Shown: positions 42,312-64,000 of the stretch, piece after piece
Position numbering within the stretch: position 1 is the stretch's first letter
Layout of the letters: each line of letters opens with the position of its first letter
The notes under the pieces: generated by a model
Database searches by the model: none
What the model was told of the DNA's origin: nothing
What the model saw: the letters and a program-made list of their open reading frames with translations, nothing else
NCBI GenBank assembly: GCA_963814375.1
Contig: CAWFCQ010000003.1
Span: forward strand, 191,557-255,556
Length of the DNA stretch: 64,000 bases
Direction of reading: 5' to 3'
DNA from: an uncultured Chloroflexia bacterium
Lineage (GTDB): Bacteria > Chloroflexota > Limnocylindria > QHBO01
Translations under genes and position numbers: made by a program

Positions 42312-43471
42312 CCGATACGCCTCCCGAGAGCCAGCCATCTGACGAAGAGCTCGACCCGCGCGAGGAGTTCCACGAGGACGCAATCTACGAGGCGGGGACG
42401 TATCTCGACGCTCCGCTCGACGAGCCGATCCCCGAGCGGGAGGTCAGCCTCACCCGCCGCGTCCTGAACTGGAAGACGATCGGATCGGTCATCTTCGCCA
42501 TCGCCCTGCTGGCGCTCGCCTTCCGGACGATGGGCGCCAACCTCGGCCGCACCCTGGAGCTCATCGGCAACGCCGACCTCCGGCTGCTGGCGCTCGCCTT
42601 CTTCGCGTACTACCTGACCTTCCCGATCCGCGGCTGGCGCTGGCGTTACGTCCTCTCGAAGGTCGGCACCCACATCGGCTTCAAGGACGCGACCGAGATC
42701 CTGTACCTGTCGTGGTTCGTGAACTGCCTGGTGCCGGCCAAGCTCGGCGACCTGTATCGGGCGTACCTGCTCAAGGGCAACTACGGCGCATCGGCCTCGC
42801 GCACGGTCGGCACGATCTTCATCGAGCGCATCGCCGACATCATCGTCATCTTCTTCCTGGCGCTGGCGGCCGGCTTCTGGAGCTTCCGTAACACCGAGCG
42901 CCTGCCAATCGTGAACCTGCTCTTCCTCATCGGCCTCATCGCCGCCGCGGTGCTCGTCGTCTTCCTCGTCGTGCTGCGCGGCTGGGGCGCGAAGCTGGCC
43001 CCGAGGCTTCCCGCTCGCCTCGCCAACCTCTGGGAACGCTTCCACGAGGGCAGCACCGGGACGCTGACCCTGCGCAGGCTGCCCTTCCTGCTCGTGGCCA
43101 CCGTGGCGATCTGGCTGCTCGAGGGGGCGCGCCTCTACTTCGTGATCCAGGCGCTCGGCCTGCCGGGCGTGGACCTCGGCATCAGCGCGTCGATCTTCGT
43201 CGCCCTGGCCGCCGCGCTCCTCACCGCCATCCCGCTGACGCCCGCCGGGGTCGGGTTCGTCGAGGCGGGCATCGCCGGCGCGCTGCTCATCTACGGGGTC
43301 TCCGGCGACCAGGCCGCGGCGGTGGCGCTGACCGACCGAGGCATCAGCATCCTCACCGTGATCGTGTTCGGCGGGATCCTCTATCTCTTCAGTGACAAGG
43401 TGCGTCGCGCCCACGGCGGCGGCACGCCGCAGACCCCAGCCGATCTCCAGGAGCGCCCGCTGCAAGGCTGA
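42308..43471 (+). CDS. Lysylphosphatidylglycerol-synthase-TM / flippase-like membrane protein
   Basis: RGWRW, NCLVPAKLGDLYR, ERIAD, PLTPAGVGFVEA, DR. Confidence 0.88.
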   Translation: MTDTPPESQPSDEELDPREEFHEDAIYEAGTYLDAPLDEPIPEREVSLTRRVLNWKTIGSVIFAIALLALAFRTMGANLGRTLELIGNADLRLLALAFFAYYLTFPIRGWRWRYVLSKVGTHIGFKDATEILYLSWFVNCLVPAKLGDLYRAYLLKGNYGASASRTVGTIFIERIADIIVIFFLALAAGFWSFRNTERLPIVNLLFLIGLIAAAVLVVFLVVLRGWGAKLAPRLPARLANLWERFHEGSTGTLTLRRLPFLLVATVAIWLLEGARLYFVIQALGLPGVDLGISASIFVALAAALLTAIPLTPAGVGFVEAGIAGALLIYGVSGDQAAAVALTDRGISILTVIVFGGILYLFSDKVRRAHGGGTPQTPADLQERPLQG

Positions 43472-43494
43472 CGGCAAGGCGCCCGCGGTACCTT
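43462..43494 (+). promoter_or_regulatory. Promoter GCAAGG-N6-GCAAGG-N9-TACCTT upstream of the XRE gene
   Basis: Same spacing as 53592-53624 and 56700-56732. Confidence 0.65.
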
Positions 43495-43595
43495 CCTCCT
43501 ATTGAGGCACCTGCTGCCCCGCGGGATGCTCCGGTTGCTCGCACGCACCGGCACATGCAATGCATCGGTAGCGGTGAGCGTACATAAGGTCGCAG

Positions 43596-44000
43596 ATGAC
43601 CCTGCAGACACCGCAATCCTTCAACGCCTGGCTGCGCGGCCAGCTGAAGGAGAAGAAGATGAGCCAGCGCCAGCTGGCGCTCCAGTCGGGGGTGGATCAC
43701 TCCACTATCAGCCGGCTGATCAAGGGTGACCGCATGCCGTCGCTCGGCACCGCCACGAAGCTGGCGCGCGGGCTGCGCGAGATCCACGACGAGGCCGAGG
43801 GGCCGGCCTACTTCGCATCCCTCAACTCGCGCACGATGATGCCCACCACTCGCGTCGAGTACGCACTGCGCGGAGACGACTCGCTGACGGAGGCGGACGT
43901 CCGCGAGCTGATGCAGGCGTACATCGCCCTCCGCGCCCGACGCACCCGCGCCGGCGGCAACGGCCAGTCCGGGCCGAACGGGTTCACCGCGAGCCGCTGA
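43596..44000 (+). CDS. XRE-family HTH transcriptional regulator
   Basis: MSQRQLALQSGVDHSTISRLIKGDRMPSL. Confidence 0.9.
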   Translation: MTLQTPQSFNAWLRGQLKEKKMSQRQLALQSGVDHSTISRLIKGDRMPSLGTATKLARGLREIHDEAEGPAYFASLNSRTMMPTTRVEYALRGDDSLTEADVRELMQAYIALRARRTRAGGNGQSGPNGFTASR

Positions 44001-44914
44001 CCCCCTCCCGGCGAACGACACGCGTCGAGCGCCGATTCGTTCGAAACGCCTTCGGCGGCAGCACCGGCAGATCGTCCGCGCCGTTCCACAGCATCCACGC
44101 ACGCCGCATGTTGACCGCGTCCCAGCCCTCGTCCGTCGTCCGGGCGTTTCCATGACGAAGGTGGTGGCCGACAGCCGCGGCATCCCGCAGCAGCGCACCA
44201 AGCCCAACCGGACCGATGCGGCCCGCGCCGACATGCTCGTGACGATCGGCGCGCGAGCCGAGGACCGAGCGCGAGTCGTTGAGGTGGACGAGGGCCAGCC
44301 GCTCCATCCCGATCAGCTCCTCGAACCGATCCACCACGGCGACCATCCCTTCCGTCGAGGAGATGTCGTAGCCGGCGCCCCAGAGATGGGCGGTGTCGAG
44401 GCAGAAGCCGAACCGATCCGGCGGCGCCGCGACACCGTCGAGGATGCGAGCCAGCTCCTCGATCCGGGAGCCGAGCATGTCGCCGCCGCCCGATGAGTTC
44501 TCGAGGACGAGGCGCACACCCGCCGGCGACTGCGCCGAGGACGGCGCGGACGTTCTCCACGATGCGCCTGAGGCCGGCCTCGGCGCCCACGCCACGGTGC
44601 GAGCCGATGTGGGTGTTCACGATGGTCGCCCCGTACGACGGCGCGCGCTGCATCTCGATCACCAACCCCTCGCGCGACCGCGAGGCGAAGGGCTCCGCGG
44701 TTCCGGCGAGGTTGATGAGGTACGAGGCGTGGATGGCGATCACGTCGAGCCCCTCCCGCGCCGCGTAGTCGACGAACTCCGGCGCCTTGAGCGGTGGCTC
44801 GGGACGACGGCGCCAGGCGGTCGGGTTGTCGGTGAAGATCTGGAGCGCCCGTGCTCCGATCTGGCGCGACCGACGGGCCGCGCGCAGCAGCCCGGTCATG
44901 ACGCCGAGGTGCAT
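43984..44914 (-). CDS. nfo: Endonuclease IV (frameshifted; start uncertain)
   Basis: QIFTDNP, HASYLINL, HIGSH, LENS, CLDTAH, HLNDS, DRHEH across frames. Confidence 0.88.
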
Positions 44915-44984
44915 CCCGACCGTCGGCGCACCGTCGGGCCAGGTGAGACGCCGCCGCGGCTCGGGCCGTGCTACGGTGCGGGCC

Positions 44985-45128
44985 ATGGCCGACGAGCCGA
45001 CTGCTCCCGAGTCCGAAGGCGATCCAGCGCCGCGCGATCCCGACCTCCTGTCGATCGGGCTGGCGGTCTTCTTCGTCTCGCTGATCGGGATCGTGGCGCT
45101 GCTGCTGATCGTGCCCGCGCTGTTCTGA
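44985..45128 (+). CDS. 47-aa single-TM hypothetical protein
   Basis: MADEPT...LLSIGLAVFFVSLIGIVALLLIVPALF; TACGGT 7 nt upstream. Confidence 0.55.
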   Translation: MADEPTAPESEGDPAPRDPDLLSIGLAVFFVSLIGIVALLLIVPALF

Positions 45129-45143
45129 GCGCGTACCCCGAGC

Positions 45144-45743
45144 TCAGCGGGATCCTCCGGCACGGCGCTCGATGACGGGCTGGATGACCCCGTAGTTGCC
45201 GTCGGCGCGCCGATAGACGACCGCCACCTCGGACGTCTCGGCGTCGAGGAACACGAAGAAGGCGTGGCCGAGCTCCTCCATCTGGGCGATGGCGTCCTCC
45301 TCGAACATCGGCAGCATGTCGAAGCGCTTCGTCTTCACGACCGTCGGACCCTCGCCGTCCCCTCGGCCGGCCTTACCGGTGTCGAGCGTGCCGAGGGCCT
45401 CGCGCGCCAGGACGGAGGTAACCTCGTCGCTGTGGCGCTCGCGTACGCTGCGCGGGCGCTGCTTCGTGCGCACGACCTGGCGCTCCAGCTTGTCGAGCAC
45501 GATGTCGAGCGCGGCGATCGGGGTCGCGCCCGATGCCGTCGAGCGCAGCACGTCCCCGCGGTTGCGCAGCGTGATCTCGGCCACCTGGGCGCTGTCGGTC
45601 GCATGCGACGCGTTGGCGATGAGCTCGACATCGGCCTCGGCGAGGTCGTGCGTGATGCGGTCGAGCCTCTTCAGCTTGCGCTCGATCTGCGATCTGAGCT
45701 GATCGTCGAGCTCGAGGTTGCGGGCCGTCAGGTTGGTCTTCAC
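45144..45743 (-). CDS. hpf: Ribosome hibernation promoting factor (long HPF)
   Basis: KLERQV, EEDAIAQMEELGHAFFVF, VVYRRADGNYG. Confidence 0.92.
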   Translation of the reverse strand: MKTNLTARNLELDDQLRSQIERKLKRLDRITHDLAEADVELIANASHATDSAQVAEITLRNRGDVLRSTASGATPIAALDIVLDKLERQVVRTKQRPRSVRERHSDEVTSVLAREALGTLDTGKAGRGDGEGPTVVKTKRFDMLPMFEEDAIAQMEELGHAFFVFLDAETSEVAVVYRRADGNYGVIQPVIERRAGGSR

Positions 45744-45800
45744 TCTTCCGTGCCCTCCGCTGCGCGCCGTGCGAGTCGGTGCCCTTACCCTAGCACCGCC

Positions 45801-46455
45801 CTATACCTCGCGGGCAACCGCGAACCCGTAGACCTCGTCGGCGCCAGCCGCGCGGAGGACCGATGCGCACGCGTCGAGGGTCGCAGAGGTGGTGACGATG
45901 TCGTCGACCACGATCACCGTCGGCGGAAGCTCGATCCCGGGCCGCACGGCGATCGCATCGCGCAGGTTTCGCAGCCGCGCTGCCCGATCGAGCCGGTGCT
46001 GCCGCTCGGTCGCGTGGCGGCGCTCGAGCAGCGTCGATCACCCGTAGCCGCCGTGCTCGAGCCAGCGCCTCGGCGATCAGCGCCGCCTGGTTGTAGCCAC
46101 GCGTCCGGCGGCGCTCGAGATGGACCGGCACCGGGACCAGCGACGCAGGACCGCTGATCGCCAGCAGCCGGTCGAACGCCGGCAGCGCCGCGGTCGCCAG
46201 CGGACCCGCCACCCGTGCCGCCCCGGCGTACTTCAGGCGTCCCAGCGCGCGGCGGACCGGACCCTCGTAGGCCAGGGCGCTGATCGCCAGCGTCAGCGTC
46301 TCCGCGATGACGACCCCGGCGTCCGGCGCCACGAACGCGTCCGCAGGCCGAGACGGCGGCGGCATGGCGCTCAGGCATCGGTCGCAGAGCAGCGCGCCCG
46401 AACGTCCGCAGGCCGCGCAGGCCGGCGGCAGGACGAGGTCCAGCAGCGAGGCCAC
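45801..46455 (-). CDS. comF: ComF-family protein (frameshift near 46030)
   Basis: CAAC..LCDRC, VPVPVH..RGYNQA, VVDDIVTTSATL; located upstream of hpf. Confidence 0.88.
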
Positions 46456-46657
46456 GCCGTCCAGTTGTGGGTCGCCGCGGCGTACCCGAGCCCTTACCAG
46501 CGGCTTACCGCCGCCTCGTTGCCGGACCGCAACACGTAACCGGTACCGGAGTACTCGCCCGCAGCCCACCCCTGGTCAACCGACCCCACCGGAGTCGCCA
46601 CGCGGCCGCGCCGGAGGTACTTGCCGCCGCTGGTACCGCTGCCGTACAAGCGCAGTC

Positions 46658-46946
46658 ATGAACCCGAGGCGCATCCCGAGCAACCGGCCGGCGCGTCCTC
46701 GTCCTGGGTCGCGCGCTGTCCCTGCTCGCGATCGCGTCGCTGGCGACGTCGTTCGTCACGTTCCGCGCCGCGCCGGTCGCGGCGACGGAACCAGCCGGCA
46801 TCGTGTCGGTCGAAATCGCCATGGCGGCTGCCGAAGGCGAGTCGTGGCTGAGCGTGCCGATCGCGATCCTGCTGACGCTCTTCCTCGGGGCGCTGGTCGC
46901 GATCGCCTTCGTGACCGCGAAGGTGAGGATCGACCGCCGGAGCTGA
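46658..46946 (+). CDS. Hypothetical small membrane or secreted protein (probable frameshift)
   Basis: Hydrophobic frame LSLLAIASLATSF...WLSVPIAILLTLFLGALVAIAF. Confidence 0.4.
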
Positions 46947-47004
46947 TGGCACCGCGCGGGCCCGGTGGGGGAAGCCGGGCCTGCGCACCAACTCCCGAGC
47001 AGTG

Positions 47005-47032
47005 GCGGGACGGAGGGCTACCTCCGTCCCGC
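47005..47032. terminator. Hairpin between convergent genes (end of Tad cassette 3)
   Basis: GCGGGACGGAGG-GCTA-CCTCCGTCCCGC followed by TTCTTC. Confidence 0.7.
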
Positions 47033-47048
47033 TTCTTCGTGCCTCCGG

Positions 47049-49162
47049 CTACGGAACCACGAGGCGGACCGGGTTGCCCCGGATGGTGACCTCCCAGGTC
47101 GTGGTGTCGTTGCCGTCGTTGACCGTGTAGTGGATCTTCCACCAGCCCTCCTCGGTCTCGCCCGAGGGCAGGAGGCCGGCCGAGCCGTAGTTGGCCGTCA
47201 GCGGCACGTTGATCGTGATCCACGAGTTCTGGTACAGGCTGCCGCCGGAGGTGATGTTCGTGCAGCCCGCCGGCGCGGCAGGGCCCCCGCCGCCGAAGGT
47301 CTGGATGCAGGTCACGTTCGTGCCGCTGCGTCCGTTGTCGGCGGTGTAGTCGAACGTCACCGGGTCGTACGAGTTGCCGTCGGGGCTGTAGATCTGCATC
47401 CATGCCTTCTGGCCCACGTCACCGGGGTCGAAGAGCCGGATCTCGACCGTCTTGCCGGCGCCCTGCTGGCGATCGATCTGGGCGAGGTAGAAGGTCTGGC
47501 CGCCGCCGGTGATGTTCGCGTAGGACACCATCCGACCCGATCCGTAGATCTTCCCGTCGGCGCCGTCGGCCAGGATCGACCACATGTTCTCGAACGACTC
47601 GGTGCTGTTGCGCGTCCCATCGGACGGCGAGGTCGTCGTCACCTGGAGCCGATACGTCCCGGCCGACACCGTCGCCATCGGCCACCACTTGTTGTGCCAG
47701 TAGCCTCCCGACGCCGGGGTTGGTGATCGCGCCCTCGCTGCAGTTGGTCGGGTTGGTCGGCTCGCCGCCGTCGCTGAAGCTGCCGACGCCGGTCACGATG
47801 TCGGCGTCGTACTCATCCTGGAACAGCGTCCGGACTCGGTCATGAGCGTGTGCGCCGACGTCAGCGGCGACCCGTTCGTGTTCCACAGCCGGTAGTAGGT
47901 GGACACCGTCTCGGCGTCGCCGAGCCAGTGGTCGCCGGTGCCGTAGTGGCCGCCGATCGGCGCGCTGGCTGTCGCGCAGAAGGTCGGATCGAAGAGATAG
48001 ATGACGCCGCCGCTCGGCATCTCGATGGTGTAGTCGTAGCCGTCGGGGTCGTAGTCGGCGTTGGCGCCGGCGCCGTTGCGTCCGGTGGCGTAGGCGTCAC
48101 CGGTCGAGCGGTTGCTGCCCTGGCCCTCGATGGCGCCCCAGAAGCCCTGGCTGCAGTTCGCGGCGCCGCACAGCGGGCCGACCCGTCCGCCGCCGGGATC
48201 TGGCGCGGCTGCTCGGTGGCGGGACCGGTGTAGAACACCCTGACCGTGACGTAGTCGAGATCGGTGCGTGCGGTGTCGACGCAGTTCGTGCCGGGGTCGA
48301 CATCGGTCACGCGCAGGACGAACCTGCCGTTCGCGACCTCCGCCGGGACCCACGTGTGGCCCCAGTTGTCTGCGGCGCCGCCCAGCGTCGGGTACGGCGA
48401 CGTCGGGAAGGTGCCGGTGATGCTCCGCGTCTTCTGGCTCGTCCAGGTCACGCCGTCATCCCAGGACAGCTGAACGCCGATGGAGCAGCCGCTCGTGTCG
48501 GTCGAGCGTGCCTTGAGGCGCACCTCGACCCCGGCGATCGAGCGACCCGGCCGGGATCGTCATCCCGAAGTTCCCGTATCCCTGCTGCGCGCCGGTCGCG
48601 TTGTTGGCATGGGTGCTGCCGCCGTCGAGCGAGCGCCCCGTTCGGAGTCGTCCACCCGTTCGGCGCGTGGGTCGCGGACGGCGTGAACTCGCCGGTGTTG
48701 GTTGGCGAGCTCGGCACCATCGTGCGGAAGTCGCCGACGCCGTAGTAGTTCAGCGGGCTGCCCATCGGCACCGGAAGCACGAAGTCGGCCTTCGCGGTCC
48801 GCGTGACGGTGAGCTCGTCGAAGCCGAACAGCCCCATGAAGAAGGTGTCGACCGGGGCGGACACCGTGACGAGCATGCGTCGCGGGTTGTCCGGGTCCTG
48901 GCGCGGGGTCGACCACCACGCCCATCGACGCCGTTGCGGTACCCGTTCTTGCGGGTCTCGTCGAACGCGTCGGTCCTGGCGCTGACGACCTGCCCGGGAA
49001 GGTTGACCACGCCGGCCAGCGCGCCGCGTCGGCAGCGCGCTGCACGCGCAGCTCGTTCGCCCAGATCCACGCCACGTCGACGACGAAGGCGGAGAAGCCG
49101 ATGAGGATCGTGAGCAGGAACGCGAAGATGACGAGGATCTGTCCGCGGCTCGGCGGACTCAC
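47049..49162 (-). CDS. Large TadG-like minor pilin / tip adhesin (cassette 3; multiple frameshifts)
   Basis: RG|QILVIFAFLL..VVDVAW..QRAADAAALAG followed by a long Thr/Gly/Asn/Cys-rich extracellular region. Confidence 0.8.
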
Positions 49163-49205
49163 GGGGCTCCGTGGCTGGGCGGCTCGTGGGGCGTCATCGT
49201 CGGCC

Positions 49206-49800
49206 TCAGAACTCGGTCGGCGAGAGCGGCATGACCGTCCGGTCGTGCATCTCGATCGTGTCGATGCCGATCAGGCCGGTGAACGGCGTGCGGAAGCGGT
49301 AGGTGTAGGTCAGGCTCACACCCAGCGAGTCGGGCACCGGGTCGGCGACGCGCGTGCAGGCGGCCCAGCCGACCGATGCCTGCACGTAGTCGATGCGTTC
49401 GCCGTCGACGAGCGGGCCCGGCGTTCGGCGCTGTACGTCCAGCGATTCACCGGCCCCAGCTCCTGGCCGTCCGGCGCCCGCCTTGTAGATGCGGATCTCG
49501 GGCACCTCGGCAAGGTCGATGTCCGACCCCGGGCTGGTCAGGACGCGCTCGACGGCGGCGATGATCTGGGCGTCGATCGTGTCGCACACCGCGGTGTCGC
49601 CCTCGCCGTCCGACAGGCCGGCGCCGGTGCGCGCGCCCTCGCGGCTCGCGTACTCGAGGGTCAGGTGGTGGTCGAAGGCGAAGCCGAACTCGAGCGTGCC
49701 CAGCGTGATCAGCAGCAGGACGGGGAGGATGAGGGCCAGCTCGATCATCGACTGACCGCGCGATCGCTCGGCGCGCCAGCGCGCGAAGCCGCGAGCTCAC
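49206..49800 (-). CDS. TadE-family minor pilin (cassette 3)
   Basis: G|QSMIELALILP..EFG..ASREGAR; YTYRFRTP. Confidence 0.85.
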
Positions 49801-50441
49801 AGCGACGGCTCCATCCGCATCGCGTTCGAGTGCGTGAACTGGAAGCCGCTTCCGCCGAGCGAGATCAGGTTGGCCAGTGGCGTGACCCACGAGTGCGAGT
49901 AGGTGATCGAGACGCCGATCGTGTCGACGCTGTCGTGCGCCGCCACCGCAGCCGGCCAGGACGTCGCAGCGATCGGACTCGGGGTACCCGGCTGCCCCGA
50001 CCATGCGTGTACGGGACGGTGATGCTCGTGCCGTCCGGCATGCTGCAGGTGGTGCTGCCCGTGCGCCGATAGAGGTTGACGGGGTTGCCCGGCATGACGG
50101 CACCGGTATCGGTCGCCCAGTAGACGCGGACCTCGTCGATCCGCGCGTTGCTCGCGGGGGCGCTGATGTCGGACTCGACGCTCTGGAGAATGATGCAGTC
50201 GGACCCGGCGTCGGCCGCGGCCTCGGCGGCGAGCAGTGCGGCGTCACGGCTGGCGAAGTTCACGGCCAGGAGCGCGTTGAAGCGACGTCCCGAACTCGAG
50301 CATCCCGATGACGATCAGGATGAAGATCGGGAAGATGAGCATGAACTCGACCATCGACTGGCCCCGCTCGGCTGCGGCGCACGATCGTGCGCGGCCGACG
50401 CCGCGGATTCGAGTCTTCTGCCCCCGTGTCGTGAACAGCAT
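49797..50441 (-). CDS. TadE-family minor pilin (cassette 3; frameshifted)
   Basis: ERG|QSMVEFMLIFP..LEFG; ASRDAAL; MRMEP. Confidence 0.82.
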
Positions 50442-50785
50442 TCGGGTCTCACCTAAGGACGGAGCGAGATGACCAGGACGCTACGGGCGCTTGCTTGCTC
50501 GGCGACTGACAAATCTGAGCGCAGGCTAGGCAAGCCGTACCAAGTCGGCCATGAGCCTTTCGGCGACCGCGGGCGCCAACCGTCCTGTGCGGAGAAGGTG
50601 GGCTGGATGCTCGCTGGTGCGAGCCGATCGCGTTAGGGGTGGACGCGGATCGGCGCCCTGGACGCCGCCCGCGGCGAGGATGCTGTTGCTTCCGGGCAGC
50701 GAAGCCCTAACGCCGATGCGGCGAGGGCCGCAGGACCGCGCGCTGACGAGAGCAGACGCCGCATCGGTGCTGCGATGATGCCGGC

Positions 50786-51205
50786 ATGAGCGACAGCCCA
50801 GGCCTGATGCGCGTCGAGAACGTGACCCGCGGAACGGTCGTCGGCTCGCGCATCCGCGTCGCCAGCTCGCTCATCGACCGCAGCGTCGGCCTGCTGTCGC
50901 GAGCCGGCCTCGCCGAGGGCGAAGGGCTGTGGATCGAGCGGTCGCCGTCGATCCACATGTTCTTCATGCGCTTCGCCATCGACGCGGTCTTCATCGCCGA
51001 TGACGGCCGGGTGACGAAGGTCGTGCCGAACCTGAAGCCGTGGCGCGTCGTGTGGTGGGCGCGTGGCGCCCGCGACTGCCTCGAGCTTCCGTCAGGCGCG
51101 GCAGCAGCGAGCCAGACGGAGGTCGGGGACAACGCTTCGCCTTGTCCCGAACAGCGACGAGGCGACCGCCGAGCCTTCCGACTCGGCGGCCGCCTCCTGA
51201 GGTAG
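50786..51205 (+). CDS. DUF192 domain protein (3' end probably frameshifted)
   Basis: GLL..L..GEGLWI, IHMFFMRFAIDAVF, LELPSG. Confidence 0.88.
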   Translation: MSDSPGLMRVENVTRGTVVGSRIRVASSLIDRSVGLLSRAGLAEGEGLWIERSPSIHMFFMRFAIDAVFIADDGRVTKVVPNLKPWRVVWWARGARDCLELPSGAAAASQTEVGDNASPCPEQRRGDRRAFRLGGRLLR

Positions 51206-51234
51206 CCGCGCGCGGCAGTCCTGGCCGCCGCCCG

Positions 51235-52206
51235 TCAGTCGACGAGCTTCAGCACATACGTTCCGAGGAACCGTGGGCAGTCGTTGAGCGAGCAGTTCGT
51301 CACGCTCAACCGCTGGTGGACGAAGGGGCTGACGAAGTAGCCGACGACATCCTTGGCACTTCCCCCTGCCGCGGAGACGACATGGAAGGTAGCCCAGCCC
51401 TGGAAGTTTCCGTTGTCGTCGACAACCGGCACCACGACATCCAGGCCGCGAAGGCCTGGCGGATTGTCCGTCGGAAGGGCGTTCACGTCACTGAATAGGG
51501 CCGTGTGGTTGCCGTTGTTGTGCTGGCCGATGTACTCGCCGAACTCGAGCGTCTTGTTGATCACCAGCTCGCCCTGGATGATCTTGCGCACCTGCGTTCG
51601 TGTTGACGTTGCCCGTGCCGTAGTTCGTCCAGGCGAGGTCGCCCGGACCCGGTCGGCACGTCTCCGTTCGTCTCTCCGAAGTGGAATGGCGCACCCGGAT
51701 TGCCGTAGGCGGCCTTGGGCGTGCCATTCGTGTTGAAGGCATCGATGCTGAAGATCATCGGTGCAGCACCCTCGGCGGTGTCCGGGAATCCGGCGAGCGC
51801 CGTCGCGGTGGTCGCCACATCCATCGTGTCGATTCCGACGATCGAGCCGAAGTTGTTGTGGTGGGGCGCACCGACAAGGACCGTGACCTCGGCCCCGTTG
51901 GTCGTATCGATGGTGACGTCGACCGTGACGTCGTCTGAGCCGTCCGTCCATCCGTTGCCGGCCGCCGACGCCTTGGCCGCATTGACCGCTGTGGCGCTGT
52001 CGTTGGTGAGCATGTAGGCGTTGGCACCTGCCATCGCGGCGAGGTCGGACGCGTTCTGCTGGGACCGCCGCTGGGCGAAGGCCGAGCCGCCATCCAGGAT
52101 GAGGCCGACCATCGCGACGATCACGACGAGCGCCACGCCGAAGATGACGAGGATCTGGCCCACGTTCGTCGCGCGAAGCGCGATCTCTGAAGTCGAATCT
52201 GAACAC
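51235..52206 (-). CDS. TadG-like minor pilin (cassette 2; frameshifted)
   Basis: G|QILVIFGVAL..LDGG..QNASDLAAMAGA; C-terminal VVPVVD..GWATFH..LKLVD. Confidence 0.82.
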   Translation of the reverse strand: MFRFDFRDRASRDERGPDPRHLRRGARRDRRDGRPHPGWRLGLRPAAVPAERVRPRRDGRCQRLHAHQRQRHSGQCGQGVGGRQRMDGRLRRRHGRRHHRYDQRGRGHGPCRCAPPQQLRLDRRNRHDGCGDHRDGARRIPGHRRGCCTDDLQHRCLQHEWHAQGRLRQSGCAIPLRRDERRRADRVRATSPGRTTARATSTRTQVRKIIQGELVINKTLEFGEYIGQHNNGNHTALFSDVNALPTDNPPGLRGLDVVVPVVDDNGNFQGWATFHVVSAAGGSAKDVVGYFVSPFVHQRLSVTNCSLNDCPRFLGTYVLKLVD

Positions 52207-52227
52207 CTTGATTACCTCAACGGATGA

Positions 52228-52667
52228 TTACGGGATCTGGACAGTGCTGCTGGAGGTGAGCTCCAGCGACATGAGGTTGAAGATCGGGGTGACTGGGCTG
52301 TACTGGGCCGTCGTCTCGACCTGGACCCAGTTTCCGGGAAGGCACACACCAGCCCCGAGAGCGGAACGCTGTCGCCCTCGATGTCGACGCACGAGAAGTC
52401 GGGCGCCTCGAGCTCGAAGATGAGGTCCCGCTGGCCGTCGACGACGTCCGTGGTCTCCGAGCTCGCTCCGAGCGGAGTCCCCGGATGAACGCTCGTCACC
52501 CGCGCGATCTCGCGCGCCGCCTGCGACACGCCGTTGTACATGAAGATCGCGCGGCCGAAGTCCAGCACGCCCAGCATCAGCGCGAGGAAGACCAGCAGGG
52601 TGAGCGCGAACTCGACCATCGCCTGCCCGCGGCGGGCATCGGTGGCCGGCTCAGTTGTTCGTGACAA
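52228..52667 (-). CDS. TadE-family minor pilin (cassette 2)
   Basis: RRG|QAMVEFAL..LDFGRA..AAREIAR. Confidence 0.85.
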
Positions 52668-53535
52668 CGATCACCCTCTGCTCTGTATCCGTGCCCATCG
52701 TGTTGGAGACCGAGAGGACGACGGTGTAGTCGCCCTTCTTGGTGTAGATGTGCGACGCGTTCTGCCCGGACGACAGAGCCGCTACCGTCGCCGAAGTTCC
52801 ACGAGAAGATCGGGTTGCAGGCGGGGTTGGACATGTTCGTCGACGTGTTGGTGAACTGGAAGTTCGTCTGATCCTTCACTGCCGGAGCGTCGGGCTCACG
52901 GTGAAGTTCGCGGTCGGCACGGCACACGGCGGCGGAGCCGGCGTCGGTGTTGGCGTCGGCGTCGGGCTGACGCTTACCGATGGCGTCGGCGTCGGGGTTG
53001 CGAATGGCGTCGGCGGTCGGTGAAGGCGTCGGCGTCGGGGTGCTCACCGCGCCTCCGGTCGGCGTCATCGCGATCGTCGCGATGGCCTCAGCGCTCAGGG
53101 TCAAGTCCGTCCCGCCGGTGAAGAGCGCCATCAGCGGCGTGAGCAGCGAGAATTCGCCCTCGACCTCGCACCGCGACCTTGTGCGGGGACGCGGTCGTTC
53201 CGGGGGTGCACGAAGGCGTGCACGTCACCGAGATGTCGTCGGGGGTAGCGGCGACGTCGGATCCGTCGAGCTCGGTGAGCACGCGGCACGTGATCCGGTT
53301 GTCGACTGGATCGCAGTCATCGCCCGGCCGAGAACGAGGTCGGCTTGAACATCCCCTCCATCGCGCCTTCGCGAGCGGCGTTCTCGATCGTGATCTGGGA
53401 CTGCCAGACACGGCCGAGGTCGATCGCTCCGACGAGGAGAAGCGAGAGAACCGGAGCGATGAGCGCGAGCTCGACGAGGGCCTGTCCGCGCGGCACGCGC
53501 CGCAGGTGCCGGCTCAGACGGCGTGGGGTGACCAT
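52651..53535 (-). CDS. TadE-family minor pilin with Pro/Thr linker and PKD domain (cassette 2; frameshifted)
   Basis: RG|QALVELAL..IDLGR..AAREGA; PTPTP linker; FTNTS..FSWNFGDGSG..HIY. Confidence 0.8.
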
Positions 53536-53591
53536 GTTTCCCTCAGGTAACGGGCAGCAGGTAGTCCCTGAGTGGGAAGCTATCTGGGGAC

Positions 53592-53624
53592 ACCCTAACG
53601 TCCCATCCTTGCAACCAACCTTGC
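53592..53624 (-). promoter_or_regulatory. Promoter GCAAGG-N6-GCAAGG-N9-TAGGGT of Tad cassette 2
   Basis: Reverse complement of ACCCTA-ACGTCCCAT-CCTTGC-AACCAA-CCTTGC. Confidence 0.65.
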
Positions 53625-53722
53625 GTGCAGCGGTACTGGTGGTGCGTGGACGCACCAGCCCCTAACAAGCGGGTCTTCTGTGCGTTGTGGGGACGATGCG
53701 GCGACGGGAGCGCTGAATGGAA

Positions 53723-53749
53723 GCACCCCGGCGATGCGCGCCGGGGTGC
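53723..53749 (-). terminator. Hairpin ending Tad cassette 1
   Basis: GCACCCCGGCG-ATGCG-CGCCGGGGTGC. Confidence 0.7.
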
Positions 53750-53774
53750 GTCGTCGACTCGAGAGTCCGATCCG

Positions 53775-55022
53775 TTAGCTCAGTGGATGAGCTGAACTCC
53801 AATCAGACCGCGTGTTCGCGTTCGCCCCGACGTTTCCCGTGATCGTCGTGTTCGTGATGAAGTCGACGAACCGACCGACCAGGCAGCTGGTGGCACCGTT
53901 GCCGGTGTCACAGGTGGACTTGTTGTTGCCCTGGATGTAGTGGCCGTGGTCGTAGCCCGTGCACCAGTTGGGCGTACCGCCACAGAACTGGAAGGCGGCG
54001 AACTGCGGCAGGTGATACCACTGGTTCTGCCCATGCCCACCGACATTCGCCGGCGGACATCCACCGAGGCCGGTGCCAGGTGTGTCGTTGCAGGTACCGT
54101 CGAACTGCGGGATGAGCACGGTCTTGCCATCCCAGAAGCGCAGAGCATCCTCGATCGAGTTCGTATTACCGGGCTCGGTCACCTCATTCCAGGAGGGCAG
54201 GTCGATCGGCGGATTATTCGGGTTCAAGATCGATGCGCGCTGCTCACTAGCTCCACCACCGGGCGGTGTCCAATCGATCCAGCCGACATTCCCAGGGCTG
54301 TGCTTGCAGAGGGGAACCACATAAGGATCCGCAGTGTTCAAGACCCATTCGTCGGTTGTCGGAGCTGCATTCCCATTCGACGAACAGGACTGGATCGTCA
54401 CAGGGAATGTGACCGGAAGCACGTTGCAACCCGACTCTGCTGAGCACACATCCTCGAGATAGCCCGCCACTGCCGTGGCATTGGCATTGGTTGTGAGCTC
54501 ATCGAAGCCGAGGATGCCCGCGAAGAACGTGCCGAACGCCTTCTCACCGACAGCGCGGACGCCATAAGTGCCAGTCGGAATCACCCCGTCGCCCAACTGA
54601 GCGGCCTGCGCTGTGTCGGCGGTAACGCCTCCTCCGGGGGTCAGCATGCTCCCGCTGAGGTCGGTGTAGTACCCGGTGGCCGCATCGATGGCATTCGCGT
54701 CCACGACCGCGTTGAACTTGGCCAGGACATCTCCGTCATTGGGCGCCGGCGACACGCCGGCCATCCGTTGAGCCAAGACGACCGCTCCGGCCTCAGCGGC
54801 GGCATCGGACGCGTTCTGAGCGTCTCGTTGCTGTGCCCAGGCGTACCCGCCGTCGACGACTAGGGCGACCATGCCGATGAGAGCGATGAGTGCCACCGCC
54901 ACGATGACGAGGACTTGGCCCCGCTCGTCGCGGCGGTGCCAATCTCGGGAATACATGTTCGGGATGCCTCCATGGCTGGGAAGGGGCGCCCTGCGGCAAC
55001 CCTGGGGGGTGTCGTGACTCAT
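53775..55022 (-). CDS. TadG-like minor pilin (cassette 1)
   Basis: ERG|QVLVIVAVAL..VVDGG..QNASDAAAEAGA; PGNVGWIDW; Cys-rich C-terminus. Confidence 0.87.
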   Translation of the reverse strand: MSHDTPQGCRRAPLPSHGGIPNMYSRDWHRRDERGQVLVIVAVALIALIGMVALVVDGGYAWAQQRDAQNASDAAAEAGAVVLAQRMAGVSPAPNDGDVLAKFNAVVDANAIDAATGYYTDLSGSMLTPGGGVTADTAQAAQLGDGVIPTGTYGVRAVGEKAFGTFFAGILGFDELTTNANATAVAGYLEDVCSAESGCNVLPVTFPVTIQSCSSNGNAAPTTDEWVLNTADPYVVPLCKHSPGNVGWIDWTPPGGGASEQRASILNPNNPPIDLPSWNEVTEPGNTNSIEDALRFWDGKTVLIPQFDGTCNDTPGTGLGGCPPANVGGHGQNQWYHLPQFAAFQFCGGTPNWCTGYDHGHYIQGNNKSTCDTGNGATSCLVGRFVDFITNTTITGNVGANANTRSDWSSAHPLS

Positions 55023-55486
55023 GGCGAGACGCGCTCAATCGGCAGCATTGCCGTGGATGACATCTCAATGGTTCCGACGAGGTTGCCGATTAACGGCGTG
55101 GCGGCCGTGTAGTCGTAAGGGACGGTCACCACGGCAACGCAGTTGATCTCGCGGGGATTGCAGGTGTTCGACGGGTCATTCGGATCGTCTGGCCGGCGGA
55201 AGGCGACTTCAACGTCGTCGGGCGCGATCCCGAGGTTGGCCGCGTGCTCCGCCGCCTCACACTCGACGGTCTGGATGGCGCAGTTCACACCCTGGGTCTG
55301 ATCGACGATCGCGAGGCGCGCAGCCTCCCGCGCGGAGTTGGAGATCGTCGAGTAGGCGTAGACGGCACGGCCGAGATCCAGGATCCCCAGCATCATGAGC
55401 ATGAGCACCGGGAGCACGAGGGCGAATTCGACCAGGCTCTGTCCCGCGGAGGCGGGCTTCGGTGCAGCGCGCAGGGGCACCCTCAT
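55019..55486 (-). CDS. TadE-family minor pilin (cassette 1)
   Basis: AG|QSLVEFALVLP..LDLGR..SAREAAR; YDYTAATP. Confidence 0.88.
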   Translation of the reverse strand: MRVPLRAAPKPASAGQSLVEFALVLPVLMLMMLGILDLGRAVYAYSTISNSAREAARLAIVDQTQGVNCAIQTVECEAAEHAANLGIAPDDVEVAFRRPDDPNDPSNTCNPREINCVAVVTVPYDYTAATPLIGNLVGTIEMSSTAMLPIERVSP

Positions 55487-56631
55487 GGCACTACCGGGCT
55501 CAGGGTGATCACCGAGTTGCACGGCTGCTGGCTCCCGCCCACCAGGCTCTGGAAGCCGATCCGCCAGTTGCCGCTCGGATTCGGATTGAAGACCACCGTG
55601 GTGGTAAAGCCGTGTTGCGGAGACGACCAGGTCGACTGCGCGTCGTTCTTCCTTGTGTTGAAGAACTCCGGGACCGGGCAGTTCGGAGACGGCGGTGCGA
55701 CGTGCGTCACAGTCACGGTCGCCGTTTCCTCGATGCACTGTCCGGGTGTGCTGGCGGGCGTGGTGGTCTGCGTGTCCACGATCCGGGTGTCGCTGCCGGC
55801 CGCCGGGCTGAACGCGCCGGTGAATCCATTCGAGGTCCAAGCCGAGCGAGCGGCAGCGACGGTCAGGCCGACCATGCTCGGCACGGTCGCGCAGCCCGGG
55901 ATCGGGCGGCTCATGGGTCAGGGAAACAGTAGCGGTCGGGGTGATGCAGGCGCCGGGGGTCGAGCTTGGATTGGTCGTCTGCCCGGTGACGAGATCGGTG
56001 TCGTCTCCGGCCGCGGGAGTCACCGCTCCGGTGAATCCCGCACCTGTCCATTGCGTCCGTGCGACAGCCAGTGTCAAACCGGTGAGGTCCGGCACTGTCT
56101 TGCATGTCGGGGGAGGCGGCGGGATCGCGCCGCCGACCGGCACGCCGGAATCGTCCCGGCGCGAACCGGGAAGCTGGAGGAGGCGGCGATCTCGAAGGGG
56201 GCAAGCGGAACGATCGTTCGGAACGTGCACTCGATCGTGACGGTGGCGATATCTTCGAACTCAGGGTCGACAACCGGAGCTCCGGCCTGGTCGGTGAACG
56301 TCGGCGGGTCCACGTCGAGCGGTGAGGGCTGACAGTTCAGATTCGCCGCGTCGTTCTGGACCATCTCGACGTAGTCGACGACAGCAGGGTCGGTCGGCAC
56401 GGTCCACGCTGCATCCGCATGGGTCGCCGCGAAGTTCGCGGCCACGCGTGACGCGTTGTGGACACCGACCCATCCGAAGAAGACGCGACCGAAATCAACC
56501 GCGATGACCAGCAGCACAGCGAGCAGCCCGACGATCATCGCGAACTCGACCATCGCCTGGCCACGTCCGTGACTTCTTGACTGCTCGGCATCGACGGGAA
56601 GTTGCGGCCCGCGTCGCTTGCTCAAGGGCAT
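55483..56631 (-). CDS. TadE-family minor pilin fused to three PASTA-like domains (cassette 1; frameshifted)
   Basis: RG|QAMVEF..VDFGR; then CKTVPDLTGLTLAVAR..W..GF, CATVPSMVGLTVAAAR..W..GF, CPVPEFFN..A..W..GF. Confidence 0.78.
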
Positions 56632-56699
56632 GGGGTGCCACCTGTGGTCGGGGCACCGGGGCAGCGGTGATGCCGAAATCTATCCGCTAAGTAGTCCGG

Positions 56700-56732
56700 A
56701 CCTTAGGCGATCGACCTTGCAAGGGACCTTGC
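56700..56732 (-). promoter_or_regulatory. Promoter GCAAGG-N6-GCAAGG-N9-TAAGGT of Tad cassette 1
   Basis: Reverse complement of ACCTTA-GGCGATCGA-CCTTGC-AAGGGA-CCTTGC. Confidence 0.65.
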
Positions 56733-56768
56733 ATGGCCCGATGGGTGTCGGACGAATGTCCGGAAGTC

Positions 56769-57040
56769 CTACTCGAGCGGCCCCGCTGGGTTCGGCAGGC
56801 ACGCTGATCGCGACGGTGGTCCCCGAGCCGAGCTGGCTGGCGACGTCGATCGAACCCCCCATGGCGCTCATGATGCCGCGCGCCGCATACAGACCGACAC
56901 CACTGCCATCCGGTGCGAGCTTGCGTGCCTGGCCGGACCGATAGAACTGGTCGAAGGCGCGTTTCAGAGTCTCCCCATCCATTCCCGTCCCATGGTCTTC
57001 GATGCAGTTCTCGAGTGACTCGTGAGCCGATGAAATGGCG
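56769..57040 (-). pseudogene. 3' fragment of a sensor histidine kinase (HATPase_c), cut at the junction
   Basis: IEDHGTGM, AFDQFYR, GSGVGL, GSGTT; no H or N box upstream. Confidence 0.75.
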
Positions 57041-57047
57041 GCCGAGA

Positions 57048-57645
57048 CGCCTATCCCGACCTCTTCCGGTCGCGGCGGTTCTGGGGCGATTCGCTGACGG
57101 CGGCCTCGGCCTCGGGCGCCTTCTTCGCCTTTCTCGGCGGCGGTCCCTGGGTGGCGGCGAGCTGCTCGGGATGAGGCCGTCGTCGCTCGGCCTGCACTTC
57201 GGCTTCGTCGCCGTGGGCTACATGCTCGGCAACTTCCTCTCCGGGCGCTACGCGACGGCGGTGGGCATGAACCGGATGATGCTGGCGGGCGGATTCGTCT
57301 CGACGGCGGGCATCGCGCTTGCGCAAGGGCTCTTCGCGCTCGGGCTGGCGACGCCGTTGAGCTTCTTCGCGGCGATCATGGTCGTCGGGCTCGGCAACGG
57401 CCTGATGATGCCGAACGCCAACGCCGGGGTGGTCTCGGTCCGGCCGCCACCTCGCGGGCTCCGCGTCCGGGCTCGGCGGCGCGATGATGATCGGCGGCGG
57501 CGCGCTTCTGTCGGTGCTGGCCGGGGCGGCGCTCGGGCCGGGGCGCGGCGCCTGGCCGCTCCTCGCGATCATGTTCGCGAACTCGAGCCTCAGCATCGTC
57601 ACGACGCTCGACGTGATCCGGACGGCGAGGCGCCGCGGCCTCTAA
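57048..57645 (+). pseudogene. 3' half of a Bcr/CflA-family MFS exporter, cut at the junction
   Basis: YPDLFRSRRFWG..SGAFFAFLGG, GYMLGNFLSGRY, GNGLMMPNANAG; no 5' half. Confidence 0.8.
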
Positions 57646-57666
57646 TATGAGGCAATGGCCGAGGCC

Positions 57667-58921
57667 TAGTGGCCTGAATCACCTAAAGCGAGGGGTACAG
57701 GCTCTTGAGCTTGATCCGCGCGTCCTCTGTGGTAAAGCGCCAGTTGGCCTTGGCGTGGCAGGCGTTGCGTCGTGCGAGCCAAGCGTCGACCTCGCGCGTC
57801 GAGCGTCGCGGCGTCCTCGATGCGCCGGTCGAGGCATTGGCTGGCGAGGACGGCGAGTTCGGACTCGGCCAGATTGAGCCAGCTGCCGTGCTTGGGCGTG
57901 TAGTGCCACTCGAAGCGCTCGACGATGCGGCGCGCCTCGGCGGGCTCGAACGCCTCGTAGAGCGACGCAGGGCGCGTGCGTGTTGAGGTTGTCCTGCACC
58001 AGCACGATCTTCGGCGGCCCGGGCGAAGTGGATGTCGCTGAGATCGCGCAGGACGTGGGCGAAGTCGATGGCGGTGCGCCGCTCGGTGACCTTGACGTGG
58101 CGCCAGCCTTCGAGCGGCGCGAACAGCATGAACAGGTTGGCGGTGCCGTTGCGCTTGTACTCGTAGTCGTAGCGCGCGGGCTGGCCCGGCCGCATCGGCA
58201 ACGGCTGTCTCGTCTCGGCGACGAGTTGCTTGCGAGGTCTCGTCGAGGCAGACGAGCGGCCGCGTCGGGATCGTGCGGTCGGTGGTAGACCTCGAGCACG
58301 TCCTCCATCGCGGCGACGAAGGCGGCGTTGGCTTTGGGCGGGATCACCCAGTAGTGCTTCAGGTGCGGCTTGAGCTCGTTTTTTTAAGCGCGCGGCCGAC
58401 AGTGTTGAAGTGCGCGGCCGGGACGATCTCGCGCTCGACGACCTTGTCGGCCAGCAGCCGGATGCGACCAGCGCGCGTGGCCCTCGGGCGGCGTCGGAGC
58501 AGGCCAGCGCGGTGAGCTGGGCCTGAGCCTCGCCGTCGAAGATCGGCTTGATCGGCGGCGTTACGCGCTTCTTGCGGGAGAGCACCGCATCGAGCCCCTC
58601 GGTGACGAGCTTCTCGCGCACGCGCGTCACCATCGGAGATGTTGGTGTCGAGCGCCTCGCAAATCTGCTCGTCCTTCCAGCCCTCGCCGCGCCTCGCCCT
58701 GATCTGCCTTCAGCAGGATGCGCGCCTTCAGGATCGCCTTCGCCGAGGCCTTGCCCTTGGAGATCAGCGCCTTCAGCCGCGTCGCGCTCCGCCTGCGCTC
58801 AGCTCGACGATGAATTTCTTGTTGGCCACGACGAGCCCCCTTGTCGGTTGTCTGCCGACAAGGCAAGAATCAGTGTTCGTGGCAGAAAGCAACAGCTCGA
58901 TTTAGGTGGTGCGATCCACTA
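57667..58921. mobile_element. IS630-family insertion sequence
   Basis: Imperfect TIRs TAGTGG-N7-CACCTAAA at both ends, TA duplication in a CTAG context, internal transposase. Confidence 0.9.
57683..58829 (-). CDS. IS630 transposase (A7 slippery site 58379-58385 plus other frameshifts)
   Basis: KARILLKAD, FVAAMEDVLEVY, DYEYKRNGTANLF, LVQDNLNTH, WRFTTEDARIKLKSLYP. Confidence 0.9.
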
Positions 58922-58940
58922 GCTTCTTACGTCGTCCGGC

Positions 58941-59429
58941 ATGGGGGAGATAATTGAACAGACCAGCCTCGGCTTCCTGCTGCTCGACGCGGCCCGCGTG
59001 CTCCGGCGTCGGTTCGAGCGCGAGAGCCGCGACATTCCGATGACCACGGCGCAGCTCCAGATCGTGGTCCGGCTGAAGCATCACGACGGCATGACGCAGA
59101 CCGAGCTCGCGTCGCTGCTCGACATCGAGCCGATGACGCTCAGCCGCCACGTCGACCGGATGGAGACCGCCGGGCTCGTCGAGCGCCGGGCCTGCCCGAG
59201 CGACCGCCGCGCCCGCCGCATCTACGTCACCGACAAGGCCCGCGCCCTGATCGAGCCGATGCGCGCCCGCGCCGTCGCGGTCTACGAGGAGGCCCAGACC
59301 GGCCTCACCCCCGAGGAGCGCGCGGCGCTGATCGCCGGCCTCAACACCGTCATCGCCAATCTCTCCGCGGACCACGCGGAAGAGGCCGAACCCGTTCGCC
59401 GCCGCGCCCGCACAGGAGCCAGACGATGA
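58941..59429 (+). CDS. MarR-family regulator
   Basis: MTQTELASLLDIEPMTLSRHVDRME..DRRA. Confidence 0.92.
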   Translation: MGEIIEQTSLGFLLLDAARVLRRRFERESRDIPMTTAQLQIVVRLKHHDGMTQTELASLLDIEPMTLSRHVDRMETAGLVERRACPSDRRARRIYVTDKARALIEPMRARAVAVYEEAQTGLTPEERAALIAGLNTVIANLSADHAEEAEPVRRRARTGARR

Positions 59430-60505
59430 ACTCCGAGAAGAAGCCCACGCCGCGCCTCGTCACCGGCGCCGACGATACAGCCGTTGCCGACCTGCCGCCG
59501 GCTCGCAAGGGCAACCGGCGCCGGCTGCTGATCATCGCCCTGCCGCTCGCGCTCATGCTCGGCGGCAGCTATGCCTGGATGACCGGCGGCCGCTACATCG
59601 AGACCGAGGACGCCTGGACGTCCAGCAGAACCGCGTCAACGTCGTGCCGCAGGTCAGCGGCCAGATTCGCCAGCACCGCGGTCGCCGAGAACGAGACCGT
59701 CGCCGCCGGACAGACGCTCTTCACACTCGACGACGCCACCTACCGCAGCGCGGTCGAGGCGGCGAAGGCCCGCCTCGCCTCGGCCCGGCTCGAGGTCGAG
59801 CGGCTGAAGGCGGCCTACGCCCAGGCCGTCGCCGAGGCCGCCACCGCCCGCGAGTTGCTCGCCACCACCCGGACCCAGGACGACCGCCAGCAGGCCGTCG
59901 AAGTCCGGCGTGGTCAGCCAGTCCGCCGCCGACGACAGCGCGCTGAAGCTGCAGGTCGCCAAGGGCGCCGGGGTCAAGGCCGAGAGCGCGGTCGCCTCCG
60001 CCCGCGCGGCGCTCGCCGGCGATCCTGACATCGCTATCGATCAGCACCCGCAGGTGCTGCAGGCGCTCGCCAAGCTCGCCAAGGCGCGGCTCGACCTCGA
60101 GCACACCACGATCGTCGCCCCGGCCGATGGCGTTATCAGCCAGACCGACCGGCTGCAGATCGGCGAGTACGTCAACACGAACGCGCCCGTCCTGACCCTT
60201 GTCGAGACGGACAACAGCTGGATCGAGGCGAACTTCAAGGAGACCGAACTGCCACCATGCAGCCGGGCAGCCGGTGACGATCGACGTCGACACCTATCCG
60301 GCGCGAATTCGAGGGCAGGGTCGGCGTCGGGCCGGCACCGGGTCCGGAGTTCGCGCTACTGCCGGCCCAGAACGCGACCGGCAACTGGGTCAAGGTCGTC
60401 CAGCGCGTCCCGGTCCGCATCGACCTCGACGCGGCCCCGGACATGCCGCCGTTCCGTGCCGGGATGAGCGCCCAGGTCAGGTCGATACCGGCCACGGCGG
60501 CCTGA
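59426..60505 (+). CDS. EmrA/HlyD-family membrane fusion protein (frameshifted)
   Basis: ETEDA, PQVSG, IVAPADG, WIEANFKETEL, NATGNWVKVVQRVPVRI. Confidence 0.85.
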
Positions 60506-60539
60506 CGCACTTCGGGACCGCTGCGCGTCGGCGCACTGC

Positions 60540-62122: not shown

Positions 62123-62190
62123 ACGGCCGCACGGTCGGAACAGCGGCTCCGGGGGGTGCGCCGGCGCCCGGCCCGCGTTAAGGTCGCTCC

Positions 62191-63524: not shown

Positions 63525-63580
63525 CCGCCCCTCCGGGAGACCGTCCCATCGCCGCGACCGCCAAGCCCGAGCGCGACCTG

Positions 63581-63935
63581 GTGCAGCTCGTCTACGTCAG
63601 CTCCGCCGCGCCCGGCCTGACGCCCTACGACCTCGAGGCGATCGCCGCCTCCGCTCGCGCCCGCAACGCCGCCGCCGGGCTGACCGGCCTGCTGCTCCAC
63701 CAGGGCGGCTCGTTCTACGGCGTGCTCGAGGGGCCGAGGAGCCGGGTCTTCCAACGGATGGAGGCGATCATCATCGACCGCCGCCACGCCGGCCTCCGCA
63801 TCCTCCGCGAGGAGCGGGTCGCCGCCCGCCGCTTCGCGAACTGGGAGCTTCGGCGCCTTGCCGGTCGCCGCGCGCCCTGACGACAGGGACAGGCCCGAGG
63901 ACTTCATCCGGAGCCTCGCCAAGCGCCTCGGCTGA
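63581..63935 (+). CDS. BLUF-domain protein (3' frameshift)
   Basis: LVYVS, ARN..GLTGLL, LEG, I..DRRH, RRF..W. Confidence 0.85.
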
Positions 63936-64000
63936 TCGGACGTGGGATTTTTGTCGCTCGCGGCGCGATTTACCTACAACCTCCGTTGACACCCGCGCCG

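Follow-up and report, generated by a model that had tools for sequence, protein, structure and literature searches.

A tandem-repeat promoter element at Tad pilus-tip cassettes in Limnocylindria and its candidate response regulator

The Tad tip cassettes and their shared repeat

The 64,000-nucleotide stretch analysed here (hereafter the window) comes from a Limnocylindria genome assembled in 8 contigs (G000; 2.52 Mb, 89% complete). Pfam recognises in it an HTH_3 protein of the XRE type, whose named relatives are mostly Candidatus Limnocylindria or Chloroflexota, three TadE/TadE/TadG cassettes for the tip of a Tad pilus and a HATPase_c fragment belonging to a histidine kinase. The subject of this work is a short element, GCAAGG-N6-GCAAGG-N9-TAnnnT, which stands before the XRE gene and before the cassettes. 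Below, f1 to f5 denote families of Limnocylindria, G numbers genomes and L numbers fetched loci. The main features, in window coordinates, are:

43462..43494, plus strand: direct-repeat box (43462-43467 and 43474-43479) with -10 TACCTT (43489-43494), the upstream promoter of the XRE gene, lineage-limited
43596..44000, plus strand: XRE (HTH_3) regulator of 134 amino acids, identified by Pfam and found in f1 and f3
47049..50441, minus strand: Tad tip cassette 3 (TadE, TadE, large TadG-like), frameshifted in this assembly
50478..50510, minus strand: degenerate dyad GTCAGT-N6-GCAAGC-N9-TAGCGT, cassette 3 promoter (full in the G009 orthologue)
51235..53535, minus strand: Tad tip cassette 2 (TadE, TadE, TadG-like), frameshifted in this assembly
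53592..53624, minus strand: full motif, cassette 2 promoter, with -10 TAGGGT (53597-53592) and a start predicted near 53585
53775..56631, minus strand: Tad tip cassette 1 (TadE, TadE, TadG-like), first gene frameshifted
56700..56732, minus strand: full motif, cassette 1 promoter, with -10 TAAGGT (56705-56700) and a start predicted near 56693

Frameshifts are numerous between 44000 and 57000, in the tad cassettes and also in their comF-like and AP-endonuclease-like neighbours, and are probably sequencing indels rather than signs of decay.

A preliminary description of this DNA had reported the motif three times with identical spacing, and we recovered exactly these three matches, where 100 shuffles of the window gave a mean of 0.00 and a maximum of 0. 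A fourth copy on contig C1 (67283-67315) completes the genome's set; a weight matrix trained on 23 sites, none of them from this genome, scores the four copies at 28-33 bits and the next-best match at 17.9, and extends the half-site to (T)GCAAGGT. The half version described before cassette 3 is indeed present (50498-50478) but is better read as a degenerate full dyad, because GTCAGT lies exactly 12 bp upstream of its GCAAGC (50510-50505) and the orthologous cassette in G009 carries the full motif. The C1 copy (C1:67283-67800) precedes a secreted-type protein of 154-167 amino acids with an N-terminal hydrophobic segment, to which Pfam and NCBIfam profiles gave no match; its orthologues in L002, L006, L008, L017 and L133 have the same motif upstream, and some of them are leaderless.

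The exact motif occurs in 17 of 24 genomes of the same genus. For the Limnocylindria family as a whole the figure is 88 of 145 genomes (at least 70% complete), a reversed control giving 0; elsewhere in the phylum the count does not rise above background, 6 of 265 genomes matching the motif and 5 the control. When the first -10 base is left free, the motif is found in 53/69 genomes of f1, 20/62 of f3, 0/61 of f2, 0/7 of f4 and 0/1 of f5 (control 2). We had considered the motif specific to f1 after a first comparison (0/16 outside f1), but this was abandoned since f3 has the repeat with a degenerate first -10 base, which is also why nothing emerged when f3 leaders were searched de novo for dyads followed by an obligatory TA...T. 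These genome tallies, like those given below for the regulator, XRE and rarA, include up to three genomes flagged as unpublished (among G076, G114, G115, G166 and G239), and site L135 comes from one of them (G076); no conclusion depends on flagged genomes alone. Flanks were available for 57 distinct sites, loci being given for part of the matches only: 40 precede TadE/TadG genes, 6 the secreted-type protein of about 160 amino acids, 4 the XRE gene and 7 other genes. The genome scans that the preliminary description had called for thus bear out the conservation upstream of tad orthologues. Among single loci, L011 has the motif upstream of a class III adenylate-cyclase-like gene, and the leader in L003 resembles it; a connection with cyclic AMP signalling is possible.

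The geometry of the element was measured on 32 loci picked by the position of the regulator or of the XRE gene to limit pattern selection, four of them being from regions with a known match. Period 12 accounted for 25 cases and no other period for more than 3, and nAnnnT followed at spacer 9 in 18 of 25 dyads and at spacer 10 in 3. Across 101 distinct promoters, a set that includes related, non-independent ones, an ATG falls at the 7th to 9th base after the -10 in 14 and an A at the 7th base in 39. The spacer bases are largely free, what is conserved being the period and the spacing.

Leaderless ATGs and the A peak after the -10, spacers that are free and do not covary, and a lack of relevant Rfam matches argue that the motif is a DNA promoter element, with transcription starts at predicted positions. 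It has the direct repeats at a fixed period, the fixed distance to the -10 and the placement of repeats over the -35 position that characterise OmpR/PhoB-type promoters, and period, spacing and targets together support the earlier proposal that the Tad tip-cassette promoters are bound by one factor at a repeat of 12-bp period spanning the -35/spacer region. That the motif would instead work as RNA in the leaders, as a remnant of a cyclic di-GMP-I-like riboswitch or as a site for an RNA-binding protein, seems to us extremely improbable: GCAAGG-N9-TAA with a downstream GCTGCC does loosely resemble the cyclic di-GMP-I consensus, but the leaderless ATGs place the motif upstream of the transcript, the variable positions of the 57 sites show no pairing covariation, and an Rfam scan of window positions 40000-60000 down to E 5 returned no riboswitch and only a chance-level Atu_C10 match. 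With neither an Rfam match nor covarying stems, membership of the cyclic di-GMP-I class was rejected.

The tad-locus response regulator as candidate binder

In intact relatives the gene order is flp, cpaB, cpaE, tadA, tadB, tadC, response regulator, kinase, motif and TadE cassette, and f3 loci have the same regulator-kinase-promoter-TadE block as f1-type loci. The regulator carries Response_reg (PF00072) and Trans_reg_C (PF00486) domains and its nearest solved relative is MtrA. Against NCBIfam it falls below the cut-offs of the best 25 of 98 matched models (nearest model MtrA, 180 bits for a cut-off of 300; TIGR02154 PhoB, 162 bits for a cut-off of 296). The 36 aligned copies form one clade (100/100), apart from the OmpR proteins of G000 itself, in a tree where the frameshifted rows L178 and L183 sit on long branches. 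The core of the recognition helix reads SY[VL]WV[TSN][VMI]RRLR and is close to invariant in both f1 and f3, in proteins that are about 50% identical overall; the helix is unreadable in a few rows with frameshifts or truncations. It is unlike the helices of the six other OmpR proteins of G000. We do not claim a co-evolution of the spacer with the loop before this helix: G098, G099 and G101 combine spacer-10 sites with a changed loop, but G048 has both spacers with the usual loop.

Regulator orthologues (at least 47% identity) are present, among the matches listed (five are unlisted), in about 51 of 69 f1 genomes and about 56 of 62 f3 genomes, and the f2 matches listed are at paralogue level only (39-44%). 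TadE genes occur in 5/5 f2 genomes tested, where their upstream regions are without the repeat. At rearranged loci it is the regulator, not the kinase, that remains beside the motif-bearing cassette (G103, G105 and G107, and the second copy in genus g11). That genus (L198, L211, L214) has two copies of the regulator, the second of which immediately precedes a TadE cassette with a drifted distal half-site.

At the family level two other proteins, the XRE protein and a BldC-like HTH_17 protein, match the profile of the regulator, so genomes that separate them were sought. Among five apparently regulator-negative genomes, G216, G252 and G130 proved to have a frameshifted regulator, with motifs carrying 1-2 mismatches before their TadE cassettes. 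The other two, G165 and G278, have neither regulator nor motif at up to 2 mismatches and retain TadE genes, XRE and the BldC-like protein. In G165 an unbroken contig runs from flp through tadC, TadE and TadE to XRE without regulator, kinase or motif, tadC passing straight into the cassette; in G278, tadA-tadC is followed directly by DUF192. The remaining regulator-negative genomes are mostly too fragmented to judge (four were tested, and tadC was found in none).

Linkage, helix conservation and co-loss in G165 and G278 all favour the response regulator of the adjacent kinase, one of the candidates named in the preliminary description. We therefore consider it likely, from sequence comparison, that the motif is read by this OmpR/PhoB-family protein: in the relatives a cognate REC and Trans_reg_C regulator tracks the site, while it was not found in the G000 assembly itself. 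The set of targets is probably a small regulon undescribed before.

We propose an activator-dependent promoter bound by a dimer of the tad-locus OmpR/PhoB-family regulator. A membrane kinase would phosphorylate the regulator, whose dimer would then occupy, in head-to-tail orientation, two (T)GCAAGGT half-sites with a 12-bp period, covering roughly -39 to -33 and -27 to -21. The bound protein would replace the absent -35 and bring polymerase with the housekeeping sigma factor to the TAnnnT -10, RNA presumably starting about 7 nt past it. The TadE/TadE/TadG tip cassettes would be switched on in this way, activation being assumed rather than repression, together with satellite targets, namely the secreted-type protein of about 160 amino acids and, in some lineages, XRE, the adenylate-cyclase-like gene and others. 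The major pilin gene flp would stay under its own TTGACA-type promoter.

Three other binders were weighed. The first is another factor restricted to f1 and f3, such as the BldC-like protein (61 amino acids, G000 C8:138843-139025), which would bind the repeats head-to-tail, alone or with the regulator. Proteins of the BldC type bind direct repeats, and the gene has the same family-level distribution (7/7 f1/f3 genomes, 0/7 others); however, it is retained at 90% (G165) and 74% (G278) identity where no motif was found and lies on a different G000 contig from the tad cassettes, which makes its role improbable. The second, also put forward in the preliminary description, is the XRE protein acting on its own promoter. 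The motif does precede XRE in this genome and in a few relatives, as well as an XRE paralogue in G080, the gene is usually near the tad locus, and its family-level distribution equals that of the motif (f1 66/69, f3 61/62, f2 0/61). Yet the motif is upstream of only 4/80 XRE orthologues (78-89% identity), leaving 76 without it, and of none of 8 f3 XRE loci; G165 and G278, which yielded no motif, retain XRE; and the element conserved at XRE promoters of both families is a different, GTAC-based one. Autoregulation of XRE through the repeat is thus very improbable, and the site is not conserved before the gene as an XRE autoregulon would have it. With so few orthologues carrying the motif, XRE is rather a lineage-limited target, not a core member, and seems to have joined the regulon late.

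The third, an alternative sigma factor reading GCAAGG as an upstream element together with the -10, had likewise been suggested and is disfavoured as highly unlikely. Twenty-four Sigma70_r2 matches in G000 and the rigid spacing to the -10 speak for it. Against it, two identical half-sites 12 bp apart are, in our judgement, more in keeping with a tandem dimer than with sigma regions 3/4, the -10 belongs to the housekeeping TAnnnT/nAnnnT class seen also at the flp (TTGACA) and XRE (TTGAGG) promoters, and the motif is co-lost with the regulator in G165 and G278.

Several points weigh against the tad-locus regulator as the binder, and binding itself is deduced from sequence. XRE and the BldC-like protein share its family-level profile, and only G165 and G278 separate them, two cases that are 90-92% complete; in G165, where tadC is immediately followed by the cassette, the latter may simply have become part of that operon. 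A period of 12 bp exceeds that of the pho box and the CiaR box by one base. Several fragmented f1 genomes have the motif and no detected regulator (e.g. G141, G145, G153, G160), tadC being likewise not found in G141. Finally, G000 has four strong sites and no detectable regulator, which is explained only if its contig end is chimeric. Two features bear on this last point:

56770..57015, minus strand: remnant of the tad-locus histidine kinase, its last ~80 codons, at 62-64% identity to intact relatives; upstream is the expected place of the response regulator gene
57040..64000: foreign-looking contig end replacing regulator and tad core, a probable assembly chimera

The genes of this end begin right after the kinase remnant, reach the end of the contig and are mostly frameshifted; we take them to be half of a major facilitator superfamily gene, one IS630-like gene, marR-emrAB, a second rarA and an open reading frame of BLUF-like type. 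Named relatives of the marR product are mostly from Amaricoccus and other Alphaproteobacteria, and the rarA product is 60-65% identical to alphaproteobacterial copies against 37-42% to the single native copy present in 39/40 family genomes. Tetranucleotide composition, on the other side, does not flag the tail as foreign (z 0.29). We conclude that Amaricoccus/Rhodobacteraceae-like DNA was probably joined to the contig at the kinase break during assembly; a true replacement is not favoured, a chimera being the simplest reading. A chimeric end would account for the failure to find tadA, tadB, tadC and the regulator in G000, where we detected no orthologue of the regulator (the best match reaches 42%), nothing matching T2SSF and, above the cut-off, nothing matching T2SSE. 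The "truncated kinase" of the preliminary description, with foreign-looking DNA starting at its very break, and the missing tad core are thus probably artefacts rather than biological truncations.

Relation to known regulators and sites

CiaR, of the streptococcal CiaRH system, belongs to the OmpR family. According to PMC3091779, its promoters have TTTAAG-N5-TTTAAG ten bases before the -10 and start about 7 nt after the -10. The likeness lies in two hexamer direct repeats ending in AAG, the proximal half-site of our motif, read as TGCAAG, being also ten bases before the -10. The differences are the half-site (TGCAAGGT vs TTTAAG), the period (12 vs 11), the targets, which here are Tad tip cassettes, and the regulator, the tad-locus protein forming a separate subfamily. 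In the pho box of E. coli the repeats replace the -35. PMC3333781 describes two 7-bp repeats (CTGTCAT) with a 4-bp spacer, bound by PhoB. Tandem direct repeats bound by a regulator with a receiver and a winged helix-turn-helix domain would be common to both, such binding being predicted for our motif; its sequence (GCAAGGT), its period of 12 rather than 11 and a regulator under the PhoB cut-off set it apart. We accordingly rejected the motif as a pho box or CiaR box proper: neither half-site nor 11-bp period agrees, and the regulator passes no cut-off among the best 25 of 98 models.

Tad genes are under two-component control elsewhere. PprAB, through PprB, reportedly controls Tad/Flp pili in Pseudomonas aeruginosa; PprB is of the NarL/LuxR type. 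In Caulobacter, CtrA, a global cell-cycle regulator, acts at pilA. DVU2114 of Desulfovibrio controls Tad genes and is presented in its source among sigma54-type regulators. These systems resemble ours in that a two-component regulator controls Tad genes and differ from it in that we predict a small OmpR-family regulon acting on tip cassettes, not on the major pilin promoter. As to function, Tad/Flp pili serve natural transformation in Micrococcus luteus, according to PMC8467076. In the literature covered, subscription papers lying outside it, we located no account of the motif or of how tad genes are regulated in Ca. Limnocylindria; a term search of the main text of a 2026 comparative genomics paper on Limnocylindria gave no occurrence of pili, tad or two-component systems, and its supplements may list such genes (PMC13212565).

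The gene-switch mechanism itself is of a well-known kind. What is offered for Ca. Limnocylindria is a predicted set of regulator, site and targets. The site is precisely defined at 33 bp and the candidate protein is named, so that in vitro tests are open to it even though the organism is not in culture. The set suggests separate regulation of tip pseudopilins and major pilin, and would extend the periods of OmpR/PhoB sites to include 12 bp.

The XRE leader and other promoter elements

Further elements lie around the repeats of the window:

43488..43499, plus strand: GTAC-N4-CTCC, "box C"-like, conserved upstream of XRE in both families, candidate XRE operator
43502..43530, plus strand: TTGAGG-N17-GATGCT, predicted housekeeping-type XRE promoter conserved in orthologue leaders, with ACCTGCTGCCC as its spacer
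43534..43549, plus strand: palindrome GTTGC-N6-GCACC (palB), spanning the start predicted for the housekeeping promoter
53641..53656: palB GGTGC-N6-GCACC, 16 bp upstream of the cassette-2 repeat
56750..56761: box C GGAC-N4-GTCC, 17 bp upstream of the cassette-1 repeat

The leaders of f1-type XRE genes keep the GTAC-based box, the TTGAGG-N17-GATGCT promoter and a GTTGC/GGTGC-N6-GCACC palindrome; in the few lineages whose XRE leaders bear the repeat, TACCTT of the GTAC box doubles as the -10. A second claim about the leaders was that those with the full motif share the word ACC(T)GCTGCCC. The words are present, with cores at 43509-43519, 53562-53552 and 56668-56659, but their position is not conserved: with up to 2 mismatches the word lies downstream of 8/101 promoters, those of G000 included, against 2.4 ± 1.4 (maximum 6) in shuffles, and at no shared position. 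In the XRE leader ACCTGCTGCCC is the 17-bp spacer of the separate TTGAGG-N17-GATGCT promoter and varies among orthologues, so it is not retained as a shared leader element.

palB (GGTGC-N6-GCACC), phased 13-15 bp upstream of the repeat, is found within 100 bp of 35/101 promoters (1.8 ± 1.2 in shuffles), and box C, G(T/G)AC-N4-GT(A/C)C, 30-32 bp upstream of the repeat at 21/101 (0.8 ± 0.7). Genome-wide in G000 neither is clearly enriched: palB has 5 of 17 occurrences in intergenic DNA (2-4 for other spacers) and box C 18/73 (13-22). Both persist upstream of the G165 cassette. Another box C occurs at 46543-46554, upstream of the comF-like gene that borders the tad locus. From the shape of the sites we would guess at a CRP-like protein for palB and XRE for box C; the CRP-like candidate has a patchy profile, being weak in G270 and not found in G002 or G278. 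It is tempting to speculate that the promoters are multi-input gates choosing the pilus tip, in which the regulator box, phased with palB (CRP-like candidate), and box C (XRE candidate) would switch separately 2-4 alternative TadE/TadG sets on one constitutive pilin, a regulator-to-XRE feed-forward loop having been gained in the lineage of this genome, but we hold this to be rather unlikely.

The flp promoter, TTGACA-N17/18-cAnngT, is without the repeat. It is followed by a conserved GGACC-N3-GGKC-CAT box resembling the element upstream of XRE (L184, L192, L195, L246-L248, L251-L255). Some 150-300 bp upstream of flp lies a conserved non-coding element, a candidate small RNA, which contains a CTCCTCCTCC stretch of anti-Shine-Dalgarno-like type and, immediately ahead of the flp promoter, a terminator-like hairpin (L184, L195, L236, L247, L248, L251, L252, L253, L178). 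At one locus, L258 of G200, seven tandem flp-like pilin genes stand upstream of the tad core.

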